This document shows, piece by piece, positions 1,594-43,530 of a DNA stretch of 59,095 bases. The stretch covers positions 1 through 59,095 of IMG/VR virus record IMGVR_UViG_3300046169_000006. One strand, written 5' to 3'. The notes below the pieces were generated by a model, which saw only the letters and a program-made list of their open reading frames with translations, made no database searches and was not told the origin of the DNA. How positions within the stretch are numbered: position 1 is the first letter of the stretch; each line of letters begins with the position of its first letter. Source of the DNA: a virus (Duplodnaviria > Caudoviricetes). A program made the translations under genes and the position numbers.

Positions 1594-2415
1594 TTACCCG
1601 ACCATAGCTGCGTAAGTCTTGGGACCTACGATACCGTCAGGCGTTAAATTATGGTTACGCTGCCATTCAACAACAGCAGCTTCAGTCATTTTCCCAAACA
1701 CGCCATCAGCAGATTGCGACAGTGCTTTCTGGACTTTTTTAACTTCTTCTCCGCGAGACCCTACTTTAAGTAAGACCGGTGCCGGAGCTGGAGTGTAAGT
1801 CCCGCCTAGGATTTTTAGCGCACGCTCATAGTGATGCTTGCGATCTTCAAGACCAATATAACCACCGTTTATTCGTTTGGTTGCACCGCGAATATCTTGT
1901 TGGTTTGCATACACGTTAACACTATTCTGTCGCCAAAACCAGCAGGCACTTTCAAGAGCCCCCATTTTTGTTTGGAGGTACTCAAGGGTGTCCGAGAGGT
2001 TTTTGTCTATACTTTCTGAGAACGCAACGTGGTTACTCTTACCTGTCAATTGGATTATACCAAAGCCTCTATGCTTCCACCCGTCACCAGATGCAGTGTC
2101 TCCATTGCTCATACGGTTTGCATACACGACGTTCGCAATCTTCTCTGGCTGACGATGATACTCTTCCGCGTCTCGACCTGCGCGTCTAAAGTACTTAGGG
2201 AACACCACATTAAGGGCTTTCGCACTATAGTTGAGGTTCTCTTCTAAGACTTTAAAGTTTAGACTTTCGTGACCGCACTGCGCAAAGAACATCGCGACAC
2301 GGTTTACGGAGTCTATCCCGTATTTAGGAAGCATTTTTTGCACAGGTTCAAGCCACGCAGCCCATTCAGAGTTTCCGTCTAATAACTGCTCAAGCTGTTT
2401 TTTAGTTACCTTCAT
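1594..2415 (-). CDS. Endolysin: GH19 (chitinase/lysozyme-like) domain plus C-terminal peptidoglycan-binding domain
   Basis: AMFFAQCGHES, EENLNYS, HRGFGIIQLTG and TKRINGG GH19 motifs; C-terminal DGVFGKMTEAAV...DGIVGPKT PG-binding repeats. Confidence 0.92.
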   Translation of the reverse strand: MKVTKKQLEQLLDGNSEWAAWLEPVQKMLPKYGIDSVNRVAMFFAQCGHESLNFKVLEENLNYSAKALNVVFPKYFRRAGRDAEEYHRQPEKIANVVYANRMSNGDTASGDGWKHRGFGIIQLTGKSNHVAFSESIDKNLSDTLEYLQTKMGALESACWFWRQNSVNVYANQQDIRGATKRINGGYIGLEDRKHHYERALKILGGTYTPAPAPVLLKVGSRGEEVKKVQKALSQSADGVFGKMTEAAVVEWQRNHNLTPDGIVGPKTYAAMVG

Positions 2416-2807
2416 TTAGCAATTCCTTTATTTTTCTCAAAGCTACGCAGGCCGCCTAAACCAAGCATACCCATCATAACAGTCATCAAAGAGCTCATAT
2501 CAAACTCTGGTAGATCAGGAATTTCTACACCCGCAGCCGTGACACCAAATACGATGAGTGGCTGTAAGACAAAGTGATAGGCGAACGCGACTCCGCAAAC
2601 CCACCCGATAAAGGGGCGCCAACCACCTTTAAACAGCGAGCCTGATGCAGCTTCTGCCTTGTTAATCTCTAACTGACCCTTGGCTAACTCTTGAGCATGA
2701 CGCTCAGACATCGTTGCAATCTCATGCGCCAACGCAGCTTTCTGGTCTTTGTCTTCAATAACTTTATCAAGTAGCCCTGATACAGGACCAATAAGTGCCT
2801 GTAACAT
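2412..2807 (-). CDS. Holin (3TM, GTA-holin-like family)
   Basis: EINKAEA...GWRPFIGWVCG...MLGLGGLRSFEK signature; hydrophobic segments; overlaps the endolysin start. Confidence 0.85.
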   Translation of the reverse strand: MLQALIGPVSGLLDKVIEDKDQKAALAHEIATMSERHAQELAKGQLEINKAEAASGSLFKGGWRPFIGWVCGVAFAYHFVLQPLIVFGVTAAGVEIPDLPEFDMSSLMTVMMGMLGLGGLRSFEKNKGIAK

Positions 2808-3103
2808 TACTTACCTCCTATATTAGAAAAGCCGAAGTATGCGGCCACAATGGCGGCGATACTCACGTAGTATATGTTCGACATACTAGACAGGAGCGTA
2901 CTGGCGTTGCCGAGCCCTAAGAACTCAGTAAGGACTACACCAAAAGGAAATACCAACATCCCCATCAAAGAGAACCACGCCATCTTGCGTTGGGAGTCGC
3001 GCTTAGCATCTGCGTCCTCCATCTGACGACGACGATCTTCTAGCATTATCTCGCGTTCTTCGGGGTCTATTTTACCATTACCATTCAAGTCGTATTCACT
3101 CAT
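2807..3103 (-). CDS. Two-TM membrane protein with N-terminal EF-hand loop (lysis-associated?)
   Basis: Likely start at ATG 3103 (ATGA overlap with the upstream microprotein); DLNGNGKIDPEE loop; two hydrophobic helices. Confidence 0.7.
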   Translation of the reverse strand: MSEYDLNGNGKIDPEEREIMLEDRRRQMEDADAKRDSQRKMAWFSLMGMLVFPFGVVLTEFLGLGNASTLLSSMSNIYYVSIAAIVAAYFGFSNIGGK

Positions 3104-3213
3104 TTCTTTTTCCCCAAGCAGGTCTTCCCACGCTTGCAGCGCGCAGGTGACGAACATTTACTGCATGTTTTGAACGGGGCTTTTTTTGCTTTAGTTTTCT
3201 TTGCATAAGCCAT
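3100..3213 (-). CDS. 37-aa basic 4-Cys microprotein
   Basis: Manual translation MAYAKKTKAKKAPFKTCSKCSSPARCKRGKTCLGKKK; GAGG RBS; tightly packed between its neighbours. Confidence 0.65.
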   Translation of the reverse strand: MAYAKKTKAKKAPFKTCSKCSSPARCKRGKTCLGKKK

Positions 3214-3215
3214 AA

Positions 3216-3371
3216 CTATTTCCTCTTCTTGGCAGTCTTAGCCGCATTTTTAAAATCTGATTTGGTTGGAGCTCCTTTAGAGCCTACTTTGCGCATCTTC
3301 TCTTTGGAGCCAGCTGCGATACGTTTCTTTTTCGCGTGGATGTTCGCGTACAATCCGGGTTTCTTAGCCAT
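3216..3371 (-). CDS. 51-aa Lys-rich microprotein
   Basis: Manual translation MAKKPGLYANIHAKKKRIAAGSKEKMRKVGSKGAPTKSDFKNAAKTAKKRK; TAATG overlap with the upstream gene. Confidence 0.75.
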   Translation of the reverse strand: MAKKPGLYANIHAKKKRIAAGSKEKMRKVGSKGAPTKSDFKNAAKTAKKRK

Positions 3372-3661
3372 TACCATTTCACCTTATCTGCCCAGTAAGC
3401 CGCAGACATTTTGCCCTTGGCTATGTTTTTGCCGTGGCGTGCTTTAAAGCTGGCACGTTTCTTTTTCATCGTGTCGCCTTCACCTGCCTTCGGTTTACCT
3501 GCGGTCTTGGCACCCTGCTCTCCGAAACGAATTGTCTTAACTTTGTCCCCAACTTTCGCCACAACAACGTGGGACTTCTTAGGGTGGCTCGGAGTTTTCT
3601 TTGGTTTGTTGAATCCAGAAACGCCTGCTCGAGCTAGTCTTGGGTCTTTATTATCTGCCAT
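3371..3661 (-). CDS. Basic hypothetical protein (96 aa)
   Basis: ORF with GGAGG RBS; very Lys-rich; IRFG...RASFKARH...AYWA pattern. Confidence 0.8.
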   Translation of the reverse strand: MADNKDPRLARAGVSGFNKPKKTPSHPKKSHVVVAKVGDKVKTIRFGEQGAKTAGKPKAGEGDTMKKKRASFKARHGKNIAKGKMSAAYWADKVKW

Positions 3662-3669
3662 GTAGCCTC

Positions 3670-4188
3670 CTAATCAGCTAAGGGGTTGTCCAACGCACGT
3701 TGGAGTTTTTGTGTTAATCTATCTTCAAGTGCTTTCATGTCAACACCTTGGGAGGTGCGTAATTGATCGCGTTTCGTTTCGAACCGGATCTCCGCGTCGT
3801 CGATCATAACGCGCACTTTGTCTTCTGTGTTTCGGACAGTATCTTCCACTCGGTCAACTTGCTGCTCGATGCGAAGGATATCGTCTTTCAACCCGTTCTT
3901 GATGTCGCGAGAGTACTCCACAGCTTCTTCAACTTTCTCCGCCATGCCTGTAACTTTAGCATCCATCGTAGCCATAGCCTGCTGGTATTCTCCGAGGTCA
4001 AGGTTCGCCACCGATTCCACTTTCTGATACATGAGGAATCCAGCGTAGAGAGTGCCGACCACAGAGCTAACGACGCCCAGAAGAAGACCAAGTTGAGTAA
4101 TAGAAAAGCGCAGACCAAAAAGACGCACGCGCTTATCAGGAATGCTTTCAATCGTATCAAGTGTTTCACCTAAGTCTCGTTCTGCCAT
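3670..4188 (-). CDS. Membrane-anchored coiled-coil protein
   Basis: N-terminal TM (LGLLLGVVSSVVGTLYAGFLMY) followed by a long charged helical region. Confidence 0.75.
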   Translation of the reverse strand: MAERDLGETLDTIESIPDKRVRLFGLRFSITQLGLLLGVVSSVVGTLYAGFLMYQKVESVANLDLGEYQQAMATMDAKVTGMAEKVEEAVEYSRDIKNGLKDDILRIEQQVDRVEDTVRNTEDKVRVMIDDAEIRFETKRDQLRTSQGVDMKALEDRLTQKLQRALDNPLAD

Positions 4189-4189
4189 G

Positions 4190-4606
4190 TTAGTTCTCAA
4201 AATTCGTATCTGTTTTCAACTGGCGGAGTGCTTCTAACTCCTGCTCAAGTTTTCGTATCTCTAGTCTGCGTTGCTGCAACTCAAGTTGATAAAGAGTATT
4301 ACAGTTAATACGCTGCTTGGGCTTATCCAAAGGGATAACAATCCGCGCATAGACGCCAACGTCTTTGCTTTCATTCAGCACCCTGTTCACGTCGTCGTAC
4401 TCGTTACCGACGTTATTCAGGACACCTGTTACGCCGAACTCTAGGTTTGTACCGCCACCGATCGCATTGGAGCAATCAAGGTTTCCTGCCCTAAACTTAT
4501 CAGACTGATAGCTTGTTGGGCCGCTGGGCAACTGTAAATTCAACGAGTTACTATCTGCCATTACGGGTGCAGAGACACATAGCGCGAGTACAGCCCACCG
4601 TTTCAT
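4190..4606 (-). CDS. Exported protein with Cys-bracketed beta segment and C-terminal coiled coil
   Basis: Signal peptide MKRWAVLALCVSAPVMA; DCSN...INCN; LELQQRRLEIRKLEQEL. Confidence 0.75.
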   Translation of the reverse strand: MKRWAVLALCVSAPVMADSNSLNLQLPSGPTSYQSDKFRAGNLDCSNAIGGGTNLEFGVTGVLNNVGNEYDDVNRVLNESKDVGVYARIVIPLDKPKQRINCNTLYQLELQQRRLEIRKLEQELEALRQLKTDTNFEN

Positions 4607-4992
4607 CAACGTGTCCCGTCAGTTCGAGAGCATATCTTAGACGATATTATAGCGTTGCTAGGGATATCTGATCTAAGTTTAGACAGCGTGCAAATATAAA
4701 CTGCACGTCGCAGGTCCTCATCTCGAATAAAAACGTCAAAGGTAGATCGTGTTGCATGAGGGACGTGTAACAGCTTCTCAGAAGAGGCAAAGGGTACAGG
4801 GTTCCACTCGGCGTCAAAGACACCCAACTGGTAAAACTCTACATCTTTGCGAGCATTAAACATCGTCATTTCCGTAGATGCTAAACCACCAACGTAGGAT
4901 GGTTTGAACTTAGGATAAGTCGGCGTTAGCTCGTGCGCTCCCAGAGAGTTTGCTGTTAGCAACATCCCTATTATGAAACACAAATTTCTCAT
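4606..4992 (-). CDS. Exported beta-rich protein, possibly fimbrial chaperone-like Ig domain
   Basis: Signal peptide ending ...SLGA/HELTPTY; alternating beta-strand pattern; chaperone resemblance is inference. Confidence 0.55.
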   Translation of the reverse strand: MRNLCFIIGMLLTANSLGAHELTPTYPKFKPSYVGGLASTEMTMFNARKDVEFYQLGVFDAEWNPVPFASSEKLLHVPHATRSTFDVFIRDEDLRRAVYICTLSKLRSDIPSNAIISSKICSRTDGTR

Positions 4993-5486
4993 TTTGCGAT
5001 ACACTCAGCCTGTACAATCGCACGGTAAGTTCCGCCCGGAAGTGCACGGTTATAGCCATACTCAGCCACTGAGGTAACGTTGAACCACGTAGATCCTGCA
5101 ACGGTGAGATCAAACTCGGTCGTCGCTTCGTAGGTCACTTTGTTTGTATCGTAAGCTGACATCGTCGCATCAGAAACTTCACCCACTGAGGTGGAGCCGT
5201 CCCAATATACCACGTCGTTTAGGACTGGACTGGTTGAGAACGAAGTCGGAGTAGTGACACGGGCAATGTACGAATCTGCCAGTGCAACGTCATATCGAAT
5301 AACCGATTGAACACCGCCGTCAGATGTAGCTGTACTTAGTTTGTCTGGGGATGGGTTTCCATAAACACCGTTTACGTCCGTATTAATTATACACTTAGAT
5401 AAAACATTACCTTCGATGACCGCCTCTTCCGCAGAAGCTGATACCGATAGTAATAATGCTGCTGCGTAGATACTAGGTTTCTTCAT
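4989..5486 (-). CDS. Exported pilin/fimbrial-subunit-like protein
   Basis: Signal peptide ...SASA/EEAVIEGNVLSKCII; T/S/V-rich; C-terminal GGTYRAIVQAECIAK strand; GGAG RBS. Confidence 0.6.
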   Translation of the reverse strand: MKKPSIYAAALLLSVSASAEEAVIEGNVLSKCIINTDVNGVYGNPSPDKLSTATSDGGVQSVIRYDVALADSYIARVTTPTSFSTSPVLNDVVYWDGSTSVGEVSDATMSAYDTNKVTYEATTEFDLTVAGSTWFNVTSVAEYGYNRALPGGTYRAIVQAECIAK

Positions 5487-5503
5487 TGCATTGTCTCCAA
5501 TCT

Positions 5504-6391
5504 TTAGTTGTTATACTGCTCGCCGACCATTTGTTCGTGAAGCAGTTGTTGTGCCAATCCGTTACGAAGGCCGCGAGGATTTTCAGGTAACTGAGAATCC
5601 TTTAAGGTTGTGGTCTCTTCGTATACACCTCCGTTCATAGATGTGGCGTAATATGTATACATGTTAACACTTACATTAATAGCACGTATCATCCTATCTT
5701 GCGAGAAGTTATTTGCTAACGTCAAAGCGTTCTGACTTGCAGCTAACCCTCGCTCAAATGTATCTTTAGTAGCCTGTTCTTTTTCAGACTCAATGCTTTC
5801 GTCTTCCTCCTCTTCTTCCCATAGCCCAGAGTCAGTAGCTTCTAGCGTATCTGTCACCGCAGCGTCCTTCATAGGATCGTAGGCGTCGACAACAACTTGA
5901 GCAGTTAAAAGGGAAGTAGGATCAACATATCCCGGACATATTGGGTTAGCTTGTGGAGTGTAGCACTCGTCAATTTGGTATGTATAAACGACAGAGGGGT
6001 CTGTCACTTGCCCTTCACCTTCCACCGCGATCGAGCCTTTGCCCCAACGGGAAATAGGGATATTGTTTAGAGAGACAACTTTGTTGATGGAGTTTCCGGG
6101 AAGGCCTGTCCAGTCGTCTGTCTCACGGAAGATGTAGCCTTTACCGTCAGCATTTTCGTTTTGGACATGGACAAGCATTTGGGCTGCGGGGTCTTTAACA
6201 GTAGTGTATCTGTATATAACCCCGTTTATTGACAGCCCTGAGGAGTCGGGGACAAGCGCATCCATCCCCCACGTGAACCCGTCTACAGCAGCATTGCCTG
6301 TAGTGCCGTATGTAAATGGCTCACAAAAAGAGTAAGAAGGCCAAAACACTAAGAACGCTGGCAGCGCCCAAAAGGGTCTTCGCATCATCAT
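5504..6391 (-). CDS. Exported protein with beta domain, Cys pair, acidic linker and helical C-terminus
   Basis: Likely start at MMMRRPFWALPAFLVFWPSYSFC (signal-like); ECYTPQANPICP; EEEEEDES linker. Confidence 0.7.
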   Translation of the reverse strand: MMMRRPFWALPAFLVFWPSYSFCEPFTYGTTGNAAVDGFTWGMDALVPDSSGLSINGVIYRYTTVKDPAAQMLVHVQNENADGKGYIFRETDDWTGLPGNSINKVVSLNNIPISRWGKGSIAVEGEGQVTDPSVVYTYQIDECYTPQANPICPGYVDPTSLLTAQVVVDAYDPMKDAAVTDTLEATDSGLWEEEEEDESIESEKEQATKDTFERGLAASQNALTLANNFSQDRMIRAINVSVNMYTYYATSMNGGVYEETTTLKDSQLPENPRGLRNGLAQQLLHEQMVGEQYNN

Positions 6392-6884
6392 CGAGTACCT
6401 CCGCAACTTCTTGCCCCGGCCGTCTATCAGGGTCAGCTTCCCAAGCAGCTTTTGCTTCAGAGCCAATCAACCCGTCGTACGGACAAGGCGTTCCTGCGTC
6501 CATCATGGCTGAGAACACTCGTTCATCGCCGCACATGATAGAAACAGCCGCAACTTTCATACCCATGTCATATAGGGTTTTTGCGTTTTTAAGTTTCTCA
6601 CAGTTCATATCTCGGACAGTTGAGCCCATAGATATACCCAGTATTTGAGTTTGTACTGCACCTGCCACGCCAACCGTACACAGGTCAGAGTTAACACCTC
6701 CGTTAAACTGAGGGGCTACAGCAGAAGGTGGCGGTGAGTTAACGTTTGTCGTAACTTCTCCACTGGTGGTTACAGTACTTGTCGTCGTGCTCTCGGTAAC
6801 AAGAACATCATCTGCGACGGCGGTCCCTACTAAAAAGTAGAACAGGCAACACAGGCTTATTTTATATTTTGTATATTGCATCAT
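6321..6884 (-). CDS. Exported protein with C-terminal TM anchor
   Basis: Signal peptide ...VGTAVA; SPPPSAVAP; four Cys in the mature part; C-terminal TLLGAASVLSVLAFLLFL. Confidence 0.75.
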   Translation of the reverse strand: MMQYTKYKISLCCLFYFLVGTAVADDVLVTESTTTSTVTTSGEVTTNVNSPPPSAVAPQFNGGVNSDLCTVGVAGAVQTQILGISMGSTVRDMNCEKLKNAKTLYDMGMKVAAVSIMCGDERVFSAMMDAGTPCPYDGLIGSEAKAAWEADPDRRPGQEVAEVLDDDAKTLLGAASVLSVLAFLLFL

Positions 6885-7114
6885 TTCTCCACGATCCGGT
6901 CTAGTTTTTCATCTAAACGCTCGAGGCGATCTAAGACGCGGTTTATGTCAGCATGAACTTCTTGCTTTGTGACATACTCTTTCGCCATCTCCTCGCGCGT
7001 ACGGTTGATTAAGATTTGGATACGCTGGAGCTCAGTGACGTAGTTCCTGAGAACAAAACCAATGACGCCAATTAGTACCGTTAGGCTACTGCTCCATATC
7101 ATATCCGTGCCCAT
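6881..7114 (-). CDS. Small single-TM protein with coiled-coil tail
   Basis: N-terminal hydrophobic helix; YVTKQEV...RLDEKLD. Confidence 0.7.
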   Translation of the reverse strand: MGTDMIWSSSLTVLIGVIGFVLRNYVTELQRIQILINRTREEMAKEYVTKQEVHADINRVLDRLERLDEKLDRIVEK

Positions 7115-7621: not shown

Positions 7622-8728
7622 TTATAAGTATACTTTTTTGTTCGGTAGGTAGCTAACTAAACCCATCGTGTCTGGCCTGTAATCTTCGGGCCACACGATA
7701 TGGAAGTCTTCGTCTGCTGCTCCTGCATATTCTGGAAGGTGGGTCTTCACTTTAAGTAAAGGAATCCGCGCTTCGTCCATAATCCCCTGCTCTTCATACT
7801 TGTCATACTCATCAGCGAGTTTTTTCAGCCACAAGTACCACCCGTAATCGGGGATTAGCGTTTCTTCGTCCTCGGGGTCGCCAAGGGCGTTACGTTCTTG
7901 GATAACAATTCCTGCAACCCGTGTATCGTACACATAAGTTGGGTATTGTTCAAAAAGTTGACGCATTACAAAGTCTCCTCTCAATGCCTTTTTCTTCAGG
8001 TCCAAGTACATGAGAGTGTCTTCACCAACGGTAAAGTCTAAGTTAAAGCGGTTATTCTCTGTAGCGTTCTTACTAAACCAGACAAGCCGCAAGTGGCTCT
8101 CCCAGTTACTAATATATTTGTAGCAGTGAATCGCCCAACGTTGGTGGACGTCTGCAAGTTTAGTCGAGAACTCATCCCCTTCAATTTTCCTAACATGGTT
8201 CCCACTCGTGGTGTCTTGCCACCATTGGTACTCTTGGTAGAAACACCTGTTGCCATACCCGTGCACCTTGTCAGCGTCGTTCGGGTCGTTAACTCCAATG
8301 GTCGGAGACCTCGCCGCGTCATTAACTAGTTCGCCAACCGACCAGTGATAACCGCTTTCTTTGTAGATACCGTACTGGTACTCTAGGGCCAACACATCCG
8401 GGGCTTTATCGCTTTTGGCTAACTCTTTGTAGGTCCAGTAGCCATGCGGAGTAATAAAATCATCCCCGTCTACTAGAACCATGTAATCGTTGTCTGACGC
8501 TTCAAACAAATCAAAGACAGAGTTTTTACCTTTAGAGGGGCCACCATCGGACTCGGTAATGTAATACTCTATGCCGGAGTTGGCGCAATACGTACTGGCG
8601 TCCGAAACGAAATCCTCGTCGAGAGAGTTAATTACAATCACGAGGTCTTCTTTGGCGATCGTCTTGACGTGCCTAGTTACCGCTTTCATATTACGGCAGA
8701 CGAGTGCGTAAAACTTAACTTTACCCAT
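7622..8728 (-). CDS. Putative GT-A fold (GT2-like) glycosyltransferase
   Basis: GPSKGKN motif, DYMVLVDGDDF (DxD) and GED catalytic-type motif. Confidence 0.7.
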   Translation of the reverse strand: MGKVKFYALVCRNMKAVTRHVKTIAKEDLVIVINSLDEDFVSDASTYCANSGIEYYITESDGGPSKGKNSVFDLFEASDNDYMVLVDGDDFITPHGYWTYKELAKSDKAPDVLALEYQYGIYKESGYHWSVGELVNDAARSPTIGVNDPNDADKVHGYGNRCFYQEYQWWQDTTSGNHVRKIEGDEFSTKLADVHQRWAIHCYKYISNWESHLRLVWFSKNATENNRFNLDFTVGEDTLMYLDLKKKALRGDFVMRQLFEQYPTYVYDTRVAGIVIQERNALGDPEDEETLIPDYGWYLWLKKLADEYDKYEEQGIMDEARIPLLKVKTHLPEYAGAADEDFHIVWPEDYRPDTMGLVSYLPNKKVYL

Positions 8729-42148: not shown

Positions 42149-42323
42149 TATTGATCTATCCATTCCGCCAGAGCGGATCGTCGATGCGTTGGTAAAGATA
42201 CAGCGTACGGCGACGCCTGCTATGAAAGCGTTCTTGATATACCACATCAGAGCGCGAGGCGGGATAGTGCCTCCAGCTTGTGAACAAGAGTTGCACCAGA
42301 ACCGTAGCGTTCACGCGATGTAG
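42141..42323 (+). CDS. Small hypothetical protein overlapping the integrase 3' end
   Basis: Start overlaps the primase stop; 77-bp convergent overlap with int. Confidence 0.45.
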   Translation: MNDIDLSIPPERIVDALVKIQRTATPAMKAFLIYHIRARGGIVPPACEQELHQNRSVHAM

Positions 42324-43530
42324 CATGTCCCATCAAATCAGCACATAGCCTATCAGGTTCTTTTAATGCCAGTAGGCGATCTTCGAAACTATGACGGAGG
42401 CTATATACAGTATGGCCTTTCGTTTCTAACAAACCCTTCCTCCTCAAATACCTATTCATATCATCAGAGAACCTATCTTTACCTGCGTATCGTGGGAAAC
42501 CATTTGGATGCCTGCGCATAGCGGTAAGCGATACCCCAACAAGAGGTATCTCACGCGCTGAGACTCTGTTCTTCAAAGCCCTCGTGGCGTTTGGTCTAAC
42601 TTTTATATGGGGTATGTTACCAGATAGGTCTATGTCCTCAGGCTCTAAGCCTGCCACTTCCGCAGGTCGGCACCCTGTATTCACCAACACAAGGAAGATG
42701 TCTCTCGCCTCTTCGTTAGGCCCTGTAAGTATCTCTTCAGTAAAGTTATCTTTCATCCACGCCACAGAGAATGGCGGCCTATGGTTCTCGCTCTGTACAA
42801 ACCGAAGACCTTTGAAGTGGTTAACTAGCGGCAACCGCTTACGGTCTATGATTGTCTGGAACGCAGTTGAGATGTAGCTGATATCTTTGTTGGCGTTGTT
42901 AGGCGTCGCCCCATCGTCGACGATACGGTCCTGCCACCAGTCGCGGAACTCAAGCGCATCATCTCTCTCGACATTCGCAATGTCCACATCCCCCAACAAA
43001 CCTACCAAGTTCTTAAAGGCTTTCAGTCGTGGGTTTCTCCACCGGCGCATCTGGTCCGCACTCTTACCAACTAGCTTTGTCTTCTCGAAGTCGAAGTACA
43101 AGTCATTCATGTCAGAGAGTTTTATCGTCGGTCGTTTGACTGAGCCCAGTACAGCACCACTGACGACAGGGTCGTCGGCCTCGCTTGGGTTTAGCGCTTC
43201 TATGCGACGTAGAACTTCTTCTAACCCTCTACCCAGTAACTCCTTCTCAGGACGATACCGTACCCCTCGTGCCGCCGCCACTTTAACCATAGCTTCAAAC
43301 TTCTCAGAGTCACTGGAGCCTTCCGATAGAGCAGTCCAGTAGTTAAGGAGGTTGTCCTCCACCTCTGGAACCTTACGCCGTGCCTCACTTTCGCTGTCAG
43401 TCTTTAGAGATATTTGACAAGGCCACGGGTATCGTAAGGCTGTGAACCGCTTAGGAACTCTCTTTACAAAGTAGTACGTTTTCCTCGTTGTATCAGGGCC
43501 ATCCGTCGTAGATAGCCCTAAATCCTCCAC
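42247..43530 (-). CDS. int: Tyrosine integrase with DUF6538-like N-terminal domain
   Basis: YYFVKRVP...SLKTDS; TGCRPAE (R), LKN (K), YSLRH, LMGH, RY; adjacent to attP. Confidence 0.93.
   Translation of the reverse strand: MEDLGLSTTDGPDTTRKTYYFVKRVPKRFTALRYPWPCQISLKTDSESEARRKVPEVEDNLLNYWTALSEGSSDSEKFEAMVKVAAARGVRYRPEKELLGRGLEEVLRRIEALNPSEADDPVVSGAVLGSVKRPTIKLSDMNDLYFDFEKTKLVGKSADQMRRWRNPRLKAFKNLVGLLGDVDIANVERDDALEFRDWWQDRIVDDGATPNNANKDISYISTAFQTIIDRKRLPLVNHFKGLRFVQSENHRPPFSVAWMKDNFTEEILTGPNEEARDIFLVLVNTGCRPAEVAGLEPEDIDLSGNIPHIKVRPNATRALKNRVSAREIPLVGVSLTAMRRHPNGFPRYAGKDRFSDDMNRYLRRKGLLETKGHTVYSLRHSFEDRLLALKEPDRLCADLMGHATSRERYGSGATLVHKLEALSRLAL

Follow-up and report, generated by a model that had tools for sequence, protein, structure and literature searches.

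A conserved phage cassette of exported proteins includes a predicted chaperone-subunit pair resembling those of pili

The complete viral record IMGVR_UViG_3300046169_000006 (Caudoviricetes; 59,095 bp), analysed here over its whole length as the window, carries a cassette of six genes, A to F, often accompanied by a seventh, G (Table 1). We propose, tentatively and at a little short of even confidence, that the cassette and G make up a conserved envelope-targeted module, whose products would form a periplasmic assembly tethered to the inner membrane, containing a chaperone-primed immunoglobulin (Ig)-like subunit and acting at lysis. In silico support covers the export signals, the folds, the docking geometry of proteins C and D, and the co-inheritance of the genes. 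As it lacks the defining parts of both the chaperone-usher pathway and the spanins, the cassette is best filed as a phage-borne system that, to judge by the models, borrows the donor-strand principle.

Mature C (109 residues, alignment of 72 sequences) was modelled by AlphaFold2 as a single domain with a predicted local distance difference test score (pLDDT) of 89.2 and a predicted template-modelling score (pTM) of 0.81. A Foldseek search of this model against the PDB gave 15 matches at E<=1e-3, mostly chaperones of chaperone-usher systems, with template-modelling scores (TM) by query of 0.58-0.74. The top 10 were all pilus chaperones, and the list runs from DraB (TM 0.73-0.74), FaeE, PapD, SafB and FimC to Caf1M and SfaE, with MSP domains next. 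The match is confined to the chaperone N-terminal domain and spans only half of the targets, which are about 200 residues long (TM by target 0.34-0.45); C, having one domain only, does not form the two-domain boomerang of PapD_N and PapD_C. Because the search matches only the N-terminal domain of two-domain chaperones, we describe C as a "half chaperone"; by its predicted fold, it is a one-domain PapD-like protein. The fold search against viral models returned one unnamed match (4.6e-5) and nothing annotated.

Mature C starts with an invariant His (first codon at 4935), preceded by Ala in all 72 aligned sequences. In chaperones of chaperone-usher systems, an invariant Arg/Lys pair anchors the C-terminal carboxylate of the subunit. 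No alignable anchoring pair could be identified in C; the invariant His1 and Arg29 of the mature protein lie at the predicted interface with D instead. A copper protein of the CopC/YcnI type, a candidate raised by the N-terminal His, was not supported, the fold matches being chaperones and MSP domains; a single Cu-only superoxide dismutase-like chain was found among them, at rank 40.

Mature D (alignment of 73 sequences) was modelled as a beta-sandwich with one helix (pLDDT 94.3, pTM 0.84), in which Cys32-Cys162 links the first and last strands and the first 12 residues are unstructured (pLDDT 71). Residues I24, G26 and V28 are invariant directly after the cleavage site and form, as a pattern in the sequence, an I-x-G-x-V strand with alternating hydrophobics. 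The two motifs that an earlier look at the letters alone (the sequence-only reading) had picked out in this 165-residue protein, IEGNV..KC at the start and GTY.A.V..EC at the end, are present and largely invariant. Pilins head the PDB fold matches of D (CfaB, the PapG pilin domain, FimG, FimF and CS17).

When D and C were predicted together, the complex score was 0.66 (three runs, 0.61, 0.66 and 0.67) versus 0.01 for the best of three controls; in the calibration of this score, 58 of 80 solved complexes and 2 of 110 mismatched pairs came up to the mark. The runs share at least 88% of their contacts, with a partner pLDDT of at least 83. The interface joins the first strand (10-17) and the last strand (136-146) of D to residues 1-7, 28-31 and the last strand (94-104) of C. 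The best-defined pairs, D138-145 with C97-103, are in parallel register, and D14-15 contacts C2 and C99/101, so that the last strand of C lies parallel between the first and last strands of D in the predicted complex. Conserved columns are enriched at this interface in C (9 of 23 residues, against 8 of 86 elsewhere, p=0.0015), where they include the invariant N-terminal His and Arg29, and in D (17 of 32, against 38 of 114 elsewhere, p=0.034). The predicted geometry is that of donor-strand complementation, and the modelling supports, though it does not prove, binding of C to D. Donor-strand complementation of the 165-residue protein and its binding to the product then placed at 4606-4992, which is C, had been put forward for checking by the sequence-only reading, and in silico both are supported.

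Our results place C and D beside the chaperone-usher pairs DraB, FaeE-FaeG, PapD-PapG/K, SafB-SafA, FimC-FimA/H and Caf1M-Caf1, with C having the predicted fold of the chaperone N-terminal domain. D, an Ig-like protein with a signal peptide and the size of a pilin, has pilins as its best PDB matches (CFA/I CfaB being the nearest) and carries both an N-terminal alternating-hydrophobic strand around a Gly and a C-terminal G..Y.A.V strand. As in chaperone-subunit pairs, the last strand of C is predicted to run parallel to the last strand of D and also contacts the first. They differ from these pairs in several respects: C lacks the second chaperone domain, C and D have no Pfam or profile similarity to the known families, C has a disulfide while that of D joins the first and last strands, and the cassette is phage-borne with four or five unrelated envelope proteins alongside. 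A search for the usher family PF00577 was empty in the 59-kb genome at E<=10, with a positive E. coli control, in agreement with the earlier remark that no large usher is encoded. No exported protein of usher size was noticed among the flanking gene clusters viewed, an inspection that included no usher search on the loci.

Signal peptides were judged by inspection of the sequence and by hydropathy. F, E, D, C and B each open with a basic residue, then a hydrophobic stretch, then a small-x-small site, and hydropathy shows N-terminal hydrophobic segments in F, D, C and B and an aromatic-rich segment in E. The mature cysteines (69/95/118/134 in F, 145/154 in E, 32/162 in D, 105/125 in C and 46/103 in B) are, like the signal-peptide regions, all kept in relatives at 40-60% identity. 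A crude signal-peptide rule applied to the whole genome selected 5 of 66 approximate genes, four of which are the adjacent B, C, D and E, the fifth being an antisense open reading frame (ORF); F escapes this rule, yet has its N-terminal hydrophobic segment. The description from which we started, of five adjacent or overlapping genes with signal peptides and Cys residues and a sixth with a transmembrane segment and coiled coil, therefore agrees with coordinates, hydropathy and relatives.

Comparison of the seven families by hhalign found no paralogy and aligned signal peptides alone. For B to F, searches of Pfam, NCBIfam and PDB sequences gave no usable match; in PHROG, only B and F matched, and C, D and E did not. 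F contains an invariant Thr/Ser-rich stretch followed by SPPPSA and a 4-Cys domain at about residues 60-140. It matches phrog_20531 (function unknown, 1.1e-13) and has no Pfam or PDB sequence match, and its core domain was found in 13 phage records, from Pelagibacter, Roseobacter and Ralstonia phages, two Caudoviricetes sp. records and an uncultured phage fosmid. E has a Cys145-Cys154 loop in its beta-rich N-terminal domain and an invariant end (...LAQQLLHE.M...QY), and gave no lead in Pfam, NCBIfam, PDB sequences or the protein Atlas. B carries an invariant SLNLQLP at its mature N-terminus and a Cys46-Cys103 pair, and matches phrog_37374 (function unknown, 2.5e-7). Its protein Atlas model is poor (pTM 0.35), and its sub-threshold likeness to OEP/TolC (TM 0.34-0.42) and CsgG (0.30) clusters gives leads only; otherwise its own viral family alone was returned. 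A lacks cysteine; its single transmembrane segment (33-57) and the coiled-coil-like sequence after it, for which Pfam gave weak coiled-coil matches only, are kept in relatives, and it ends in an invariant LQRALDNPLA(D/N). G matches PHROG families with function unknown (phrog_12220, 2.4e-9); a homologue precedes F in close relatives. Of 60 non-redundant loci, 30 have an ORF with a hydrophobic segment immediately upstream of F, not all of these ORFs being G-like.

The cassette is inherited as a block. A scan of viral contigs with the D alignment returned at least 600 stretches, at least 533 of them encoding a relative of D; 80 of the stretches were retrieved. F, D and A matches occur together in 62 non-redundant loci among the matches listed, and a scan with E gave 14 loci, 12 with all six genes in order, the other two contigs stopping after E. 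Identity across loci is 57-100% for D, 52-99% for F and 46-100% for B, and falls to about 30% for A, C and E. The order F-E-D-C-B-A recurs while neighbouring tail-fibre, glycosyltransferase, holin and lysin genes vary; the co-occurrence in other genomes that had been named as a check is thus observed. In the genome collection, 10 small contigs from metagenome-assembled genomes (MAGs) each keep the order of whichever cassette genes are present, and the cassette was found in no isolate genome. The MAGs are assigned to Pseudomonadales, Melainabacteria, Rhodobacteraceae, Bathyarchaeia, Polaribacter and Methanobacteriota, assignments that we take as binning noise because they are mutually incompatible.

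Relatives of D are numerous in metagenomes, with 1440 in a protein-cluster collection, none with a Pfam domain. A D profile run against 1.84 billion cluster representatives matched 117 at E<=1e-3 (72 at <=1e-10 and 21 at <=1e-30), mostly fragments of the same family and a few full-length distant relatives of 159-166 residues, which share the signal peptide, the early Cys and the late G.Y.A...C. Pfam searches of 10 of the 117, chosen as distant full-length or multi-stretch matches, found no pilin family. On one 1.1-kb contig (L121), a distant D-like protein (4e-6 to the D profile) directly follows an A-like gene whose product ends in ...RALDNPLAN (genes at 2-556 and 579-1067), an A-then-D order that is the reverse of that in the window; two viral scans and one metagenome scan gave no other contigs for the distant D-like proteins. 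DNA nearly identical to the cassette occurs in seawater and viral metagenomes, with 14 runs holding at least half of the sampled words and 17 studies overall; three runs are possibly the source.

By tblastn, no cultured phage matched D, C or A. Profile hidden Markov models (HMMs) built for the cassette families from the loci detected two separate parts of the cassette in other phages. In Pelagibacter phage HTVC115P, F is gp54 (6.6e-51) and A is gp49 (3.4e-30), within a triad gp54-gp49; F was also matched in Baldr (3.7e-49), which likewise has A in the same order, and both F and A in the myovirus Mosig (3.4e-44 and 2e-4), in the Manatee Spring podovirus from a freshwater spring (1.8e-46 and 4.9e-9) and in Roseobacter phage CRP-810 (gp54-gp51), where G (6.5e-34), F (1.5e-23) and A (gp51, 2.4e-9) are all present. 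The A homologues of HTVC115P, CRP-810, the Manatee Spring podovirus and Mosig all end in the NPL motif. In HTVC115P, Baldr and Mosig, the gene between F and A encodes an E-like protein that is exported and has an acidic linker; in CRP-810 and the Manatee Spring podovirus, an uncharacterised gene takes this place. The E-like proteins are longer than E (458-611 residues) and barely alignable: the E HMM reaches only 0.0042 against HTVC115P gp53, the one among them with a C-terminal ending similar to that of E, those of Baldr and Mosig ending in a coiled-coil-like manner. The triads of pelagiphages and CRP-810 share with the window homologous F and A in the same order and the NPL tail of A, and differ from it in being without D, C and B.

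The triad genes of cultured marine phages are annotated as hypothetical or are mis-annotated. The "lysozyme" gp51 of CRP-810 (L017, 6210-6632) is, by sequence and our HMM, the A-like membrane-anchored coiled-coil protein ending in NPL. The "OmpA family" label of CRP-810 gp53 (L017, 4824-5579) and the "tonB" label of a protein of MW202481 (L018, 4272-5378) are without Pfam support.

The second part, D-C-B, was detected in Vibrio phages, whose proteins show about 30% identity to those of the window; distant relatives of B occur in 174 Vibrio phage records. The trio is gp77-gp79 in the T5-like phage pVp-1 (2.5e-8, 4.7e-9 and 2.1e-14) and p0059-p0057 in phage 51E28.4 (8e-6, 0.0098 and 1.3e-12), with homologous proteins in the same order, each having an export signal once starts are corrected. 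F, E and A are absent from these phages and a small lipobox lipoprotein is present instead, directly after the trio in pVp-1 (L123, 5127-5303) and past one gene of 224 residues in 51E28.4 (L122, 4308-4511). Its mature part is about 40-45 residues, and a Thr-rich stretch weakly resembles the N-terminus of F (HMM E 0.018-0.036), which is a lead only. The annotated start of the pVp-1 lipoprotein is probably too short. A word-index search with the C-like protein of pVp-1 returned 10 relatives of the Vibrio-phage type and no bacterial ones. The module occurs in phages of unrelated morphotypes, a T5-like phage and a myovirus.

In the window, the cassette lies between a tail-fibre module upstream and a lysis module downstream. 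The latter consists of a two-membrane-segment protein, a holin (phrog_3427, 7.8e-33) and a GH19-type endolysin with a peptidoglycan-binding domain (phrog_181, 1.3e-73), holin and endolysin being 0.5-1.3 kb downstream of the cassette. Downstream flank of at least 2.5 kb after A was present in 39 non-redundant loci, and 22 of these encode a GH19-type or GH24-type (Phage_lysozyme) endolysin within 4 kb, often with holin-like membrane proteins in between; as both endolysin types are found, the link to lysis holds across two types of lysin. In pVp-1, the D-C-B trio and the small lipoprotein are directly upstream of an annotated holin and M15 endolysin. The two-membrane-segment protein of the window, h116 (116 residues, just upstream of the holin), has a DLNGNGKIDPEE stretch that by eye is like a calcium-binding loop, followed by two membrane segments. 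It accompanies the cassette in many loci at 41-93% identity and could be a holin partner or regulator. In some loci, a gene of another kind follows A instead of a recognised endolysin: a class-3 lipase (PF01764, 2e-21) in L102 (12180-12890), L103, L072 and L075, and a staphylococcal-type nuclease with a signal peptide (PF00565, 3e-12) in L050 (8444-8869).

This neighbourhood invites comparison with spanins. A and G share the i-spanin layout of an N-terminal membrane anchor and a periplasmic coiled coil, a likeness of topology only, A having no family match, and F, with its N-terminal export signal and C-terminal membrane tail, has the end-to-end layout of a u-spanin. Holin and endolysin genes adjoin the cassette in this genome as in many relatives, no other spanin candidate is encoded by the phage, and the Vibrio phage versions add a small lipobox lipoprotein. 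On the other hand, the cassette families have no similarity to PHROG or Pfam spanin families, no embedded or overlapping gene of the Rz1 type was seen in the cassette, and a lipobox is absent from F and from the rest of the genome: a scan of all frames found only one, in an antisense ORF within a gene for a protein of 2314 residues, and no conserved Cys occurs in the cleavage regions of F and B. With no true lipobox ORF, the genome offers no o- or u-spanin candidate. We prefer a role at lysis for three reasons: 22 of 39 loci have holin and endolysin genes downstream, A is laid out like an i-spanin, and a lipoprotein spanin is lacking. Among the three functions that the sequence-only reading had offered, this context mainly favours an envelope or outer-membrane role at lysis over an adhesin.

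How such a module might work can be outlined as follows. It may be built from two units, F-E-A and D-C-B, a division suggested by their separate occurrence as F/E-like/A in pelagiphages and D-C-B in Vibrio phages. The first would comprise F (exported, 4-Cys), E (exported, in two parts with an acidic linker) and A (inner-membrane anchor, coiled coil and NPL tail). In the second, C would cap D in the periplasm, its last strand lying parallel between the first and last strands of D in donor-strand complementation, and D would then probably be passed on, either to a partner's strand or to one of its own kind, the latter yielding a short polymer. The products would form a periplasmic assembly held to the inner membrane by A and G, with the coiled coil of B and the hydrophobic tail of F as possible further tethers. 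Made with the late genes, the assembly would target the envelope during lysis and most likely carry out the outer-membrane step for which other phages use spanins. That D polymerises, how A, B, E and F touch each other, and the role at lysis are inferred. A bolder version, which we regard as doubtful, is that phages took over the donor-strand trick without an usher, C priming D for strand exchange onto membrane-tethered partners, so that a periplasm-spanning, disulfide-braced rod would break or fuse the outer membrane as the cell lyses. Such a rod would add a third kind to the spanin-like devices, assembled from the modules F/E/A and D/C/B and distributed over marine phages of podo-, sipho- and myovirus type.

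Several results weigh against a lysis assembly with a chaperone-primed subunit. The likeness of C and D to chaperone-usher proteins is structural, and family membership by sequence fails. For C, Pfam gave nothing at E<=1, PapD_N (PF00345) was absent from the 59-kb genome at E<=10 (with a positive E. coli control), and hhalign gave a probability of 0.2% against a profile of 11 E. coli K-12 chaperone N-domains; the single-Ig chaperone seen earlier in this neighbour of D stands as a predicted fold and falls as a family assignment. For D, none of the pilin Pfam families (Fimbrial, SCPU and others) matched, the best result among 8 diverse D-like proteins was SCPU in 1 of 8 at E=1.5, and hhalign against FimA/I/F/G gave 10.6%, over the signal peptide and first strand only. 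Its pilin fold matches are weak (E 3e-3 to 3e-2, TM 0.38-0.46, 0 at E<=1e-3), and unrelated beta-sandwiches (AP2 mu2, SdrE, CBMs) follow close behind. The earlier view of the 165-residue protein as pilin-like is weakly supported in that pilins top its PDB fold matches, at a TM of about 0.45, and not supported in sequence membership. The monomer model of D is confident and looks complete as it stands, so it does not establish an open groove, and the pass in complex prediction may stem from likeness to solved chaperone-subunit complexes. As to lysis, no endolysin was recognised within 4 kb in 17 of the 39 loci, and pelagiphage F/E/A triads adjoin terminase or primase genes, not known lysis genes (Baldr, Mosig). 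No outer-membrane anchor was identified in this phage. One or two small proteins suffice for a spanin (lambda Rz/Rz1; T1 gp11), and the lysis reading leaves unexplained why the cassette has six or seven. Scans for promoter and terminator signals gave counts at or below chance, so late timing rests on gene position. A single metatranscriptome library gave RNA evidence, in the form of two short contigs of 242 and 187 nt at 5274-5681, which is negligible and too little to claim transcription of the cassette; nothing follows from the stretches that lack cover.

Resemblance of C and D to chaperone-subunit pairs, their docking geometry and the invariant I-x-G-x-V strand of D would also suit a fimbria- or capsule-like fibre on or under the cell surface. 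D would polymerise by donor-strand exchange and exit through a host usher or pore, and the fibre would mask receptors, giving superinfection exclusion or protecting progeny from debris, or glue cells together. The place of the cassette after tail-fibre and fibre-assembly genes, here and in pVp-1, fits this account, and the integrase of the phage makes lysogenic conversion conceivable. We nevertheless consider a surface fibre unlikely. The genome has no usher and none was noticed in the flanking clusters viewed, where no usher search was made. The genes do not occupy a moron-like slot; they belong to a late block that is co-directional and in which stops and starts overlap. D is also conserved at 57-100% though tail fibres differ between phages, which would not be expected of a receptor-specific mask.

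A periplasmic complex unrelated to pili or lysis, which would hold or remodel the wall or envelope or act on a periplasmic target of the host, is in our view improbable too. Here the Ig folds would be generic and the docking of C and D an edge-strand pairing with no chaperone cycle. The lack of a sequence family for any of B to F is in keeping with this, as are the many unrelated sandwiches among the fold matches of D, the non-chaperone MSP domains that likewise match C, and the pelagiphage F/E/A triad, which occurs away from lysis genes and without D-C-B. It is opposed by the top 10 fold matches of C, all pilus chaperones, by a predicted interface that falls on the invariant residues and shows the specific parallel strand insertion, with the first strand on one side and the last on the other, and by the adjoining lysis genes in 22 of 39 loci and in pVp-1. 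Finally, the products could be disulfide-bonded accessory proteins, folded in the periplasm and added to the virion only after lysis, for instance as extra fibres. The Ig-like subunit and the position between tail-fibre and lysis genes suggest this, yet it is very improbable given the membrane segments of A, G and F, the presence of the module in unrelated morphotypes (T5-like phage, myovirus) and the lack of any precedent known to us, no search having been made for one.

Table 1. Genes of the cassette and the neighbouring lysis genes, in positions of the window
Feature	Position	Strand	Description
G	6881..7114	-	77 aa; N-terminal membrane segment 5-27 and coiled coil; frequent seventh member
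F	6321..6884	-	187 aa; signal peptide, 4-Cys domain, hydrophobic C-terminal tail 168-187
E	5504..6391	-	~295 aa; signal peptide, beta-rich N-terminal domain, acidic linker, C-terminal region
D	4989..5486	-	165 aa; signal peptide, predicted Ig-like beta-sandwich; pilin-like subunit
C	4606..5004	-	132 aa; signal peptide, predicted single PapD-like (MSP) Ig domain; half-chaperone-like putative partner of D
B	4190..4609	-	139 aa; signal peptide, amphipathic beta strands, C-terminal coiled-coil-like helix
A	3670..4200	-	172-176 aa; cytoplasmic N-terminus, one membrane segment, periplasmic coiled coil
Neighbouring lysis genes (context, outside cassette)	1594..3157	-	h116 2807-3157, holin 2412-2807, endolysin 1594-2415

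The genes of the cassette are transcribed in the order G-F-E-D-C-B-A and are tightly packed, with overlaps of 4 nt for G/F (the stop of G over the start of F), 71 nt for F/E, 16 nt for D/C, 4 nt for C/B and, if TTG is taken as the start of A, 11 nt for B/A. The longest ORF of E begins at 6466; relatives place the true start at the methionine of MMMRRPFW. The F/E overlap (6321-6391) is out of frame, so that the hydrophobic C-terminal tail of F and the signal peptide of E are encoded by the same DNA; a comparable overlap of about 62 nt was seen in a related locus (L012).

The phage as a whole has podovirus-like and HMO-2011-like traits and encodes a major capsid protein, portal/adaptor, terminase, internal virion proteins, a family-A-type DNA polymerase, primase/helicase and an integrase. 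The nearest cultured relatives of its capsid protein are in Rhizobium phages (45% identity), then roseophages, pelagiphages and Puniceispirillum phages. A tyrosine-integrase-like gene (42247-43530, minus strand; phrog_1, 7.5e-30) lies between the replication block and the gene for the virion protein of 2314 residues, and the phage may therefore be temperate. The upstream tail-fibre module holds a fibre of 1105 residues, a fibre-assembly protein and, between the tail-fibre genes and the cassette, a protein of 368 residues (7622-8728, minus strand) with weak GT2 glycosyltransferase matches only (E ~0.01). The last is 79-91% identical in the two closest relatives and elsewhere absent except for one match at 33%. 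Directly after the cassette, 3216-3661 (minus strand) encodes two small, very basic proteins of 53 and 96 residues (phrog_16028 and phrog_7595). Their genes are conserved at the DNA level in Roseobacter, Synechococcus, Celeribacter and Pelagibacter phages, and a spike in metagenome contig depth falls within them at 3257-3507; part of the 96-residue protein resembles a "minor head protein and DNA pilot" family.

In the titles and abstract openings covered by our literature search, supplements not included, we found no account of a phage-borne chaperone-subunit pair of the pilus type or of this module, and we know of no earlier phage-borne or usher-less pair of that type. If the predicted pairing is true, C and D would be, as far as we know, the first pilus-type chaperone-subunit pair in a phage and the first without an usher. 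The module is common, and cultured pelagiphages, roseophages and Vibrio phages carry parts of it, the genes there all being annotated as hypothetical or mis-annotated. Should it act at lysis, it would fill the missing-spanin gap of abundant marine phages and bear on how the dominant bacteria of the ocean are opened; should it form a fibre instead, it would represent a new route of donor-strand assembly. The Vibrio phages that carry the D-C-B trio make the module accessible to bench tests.

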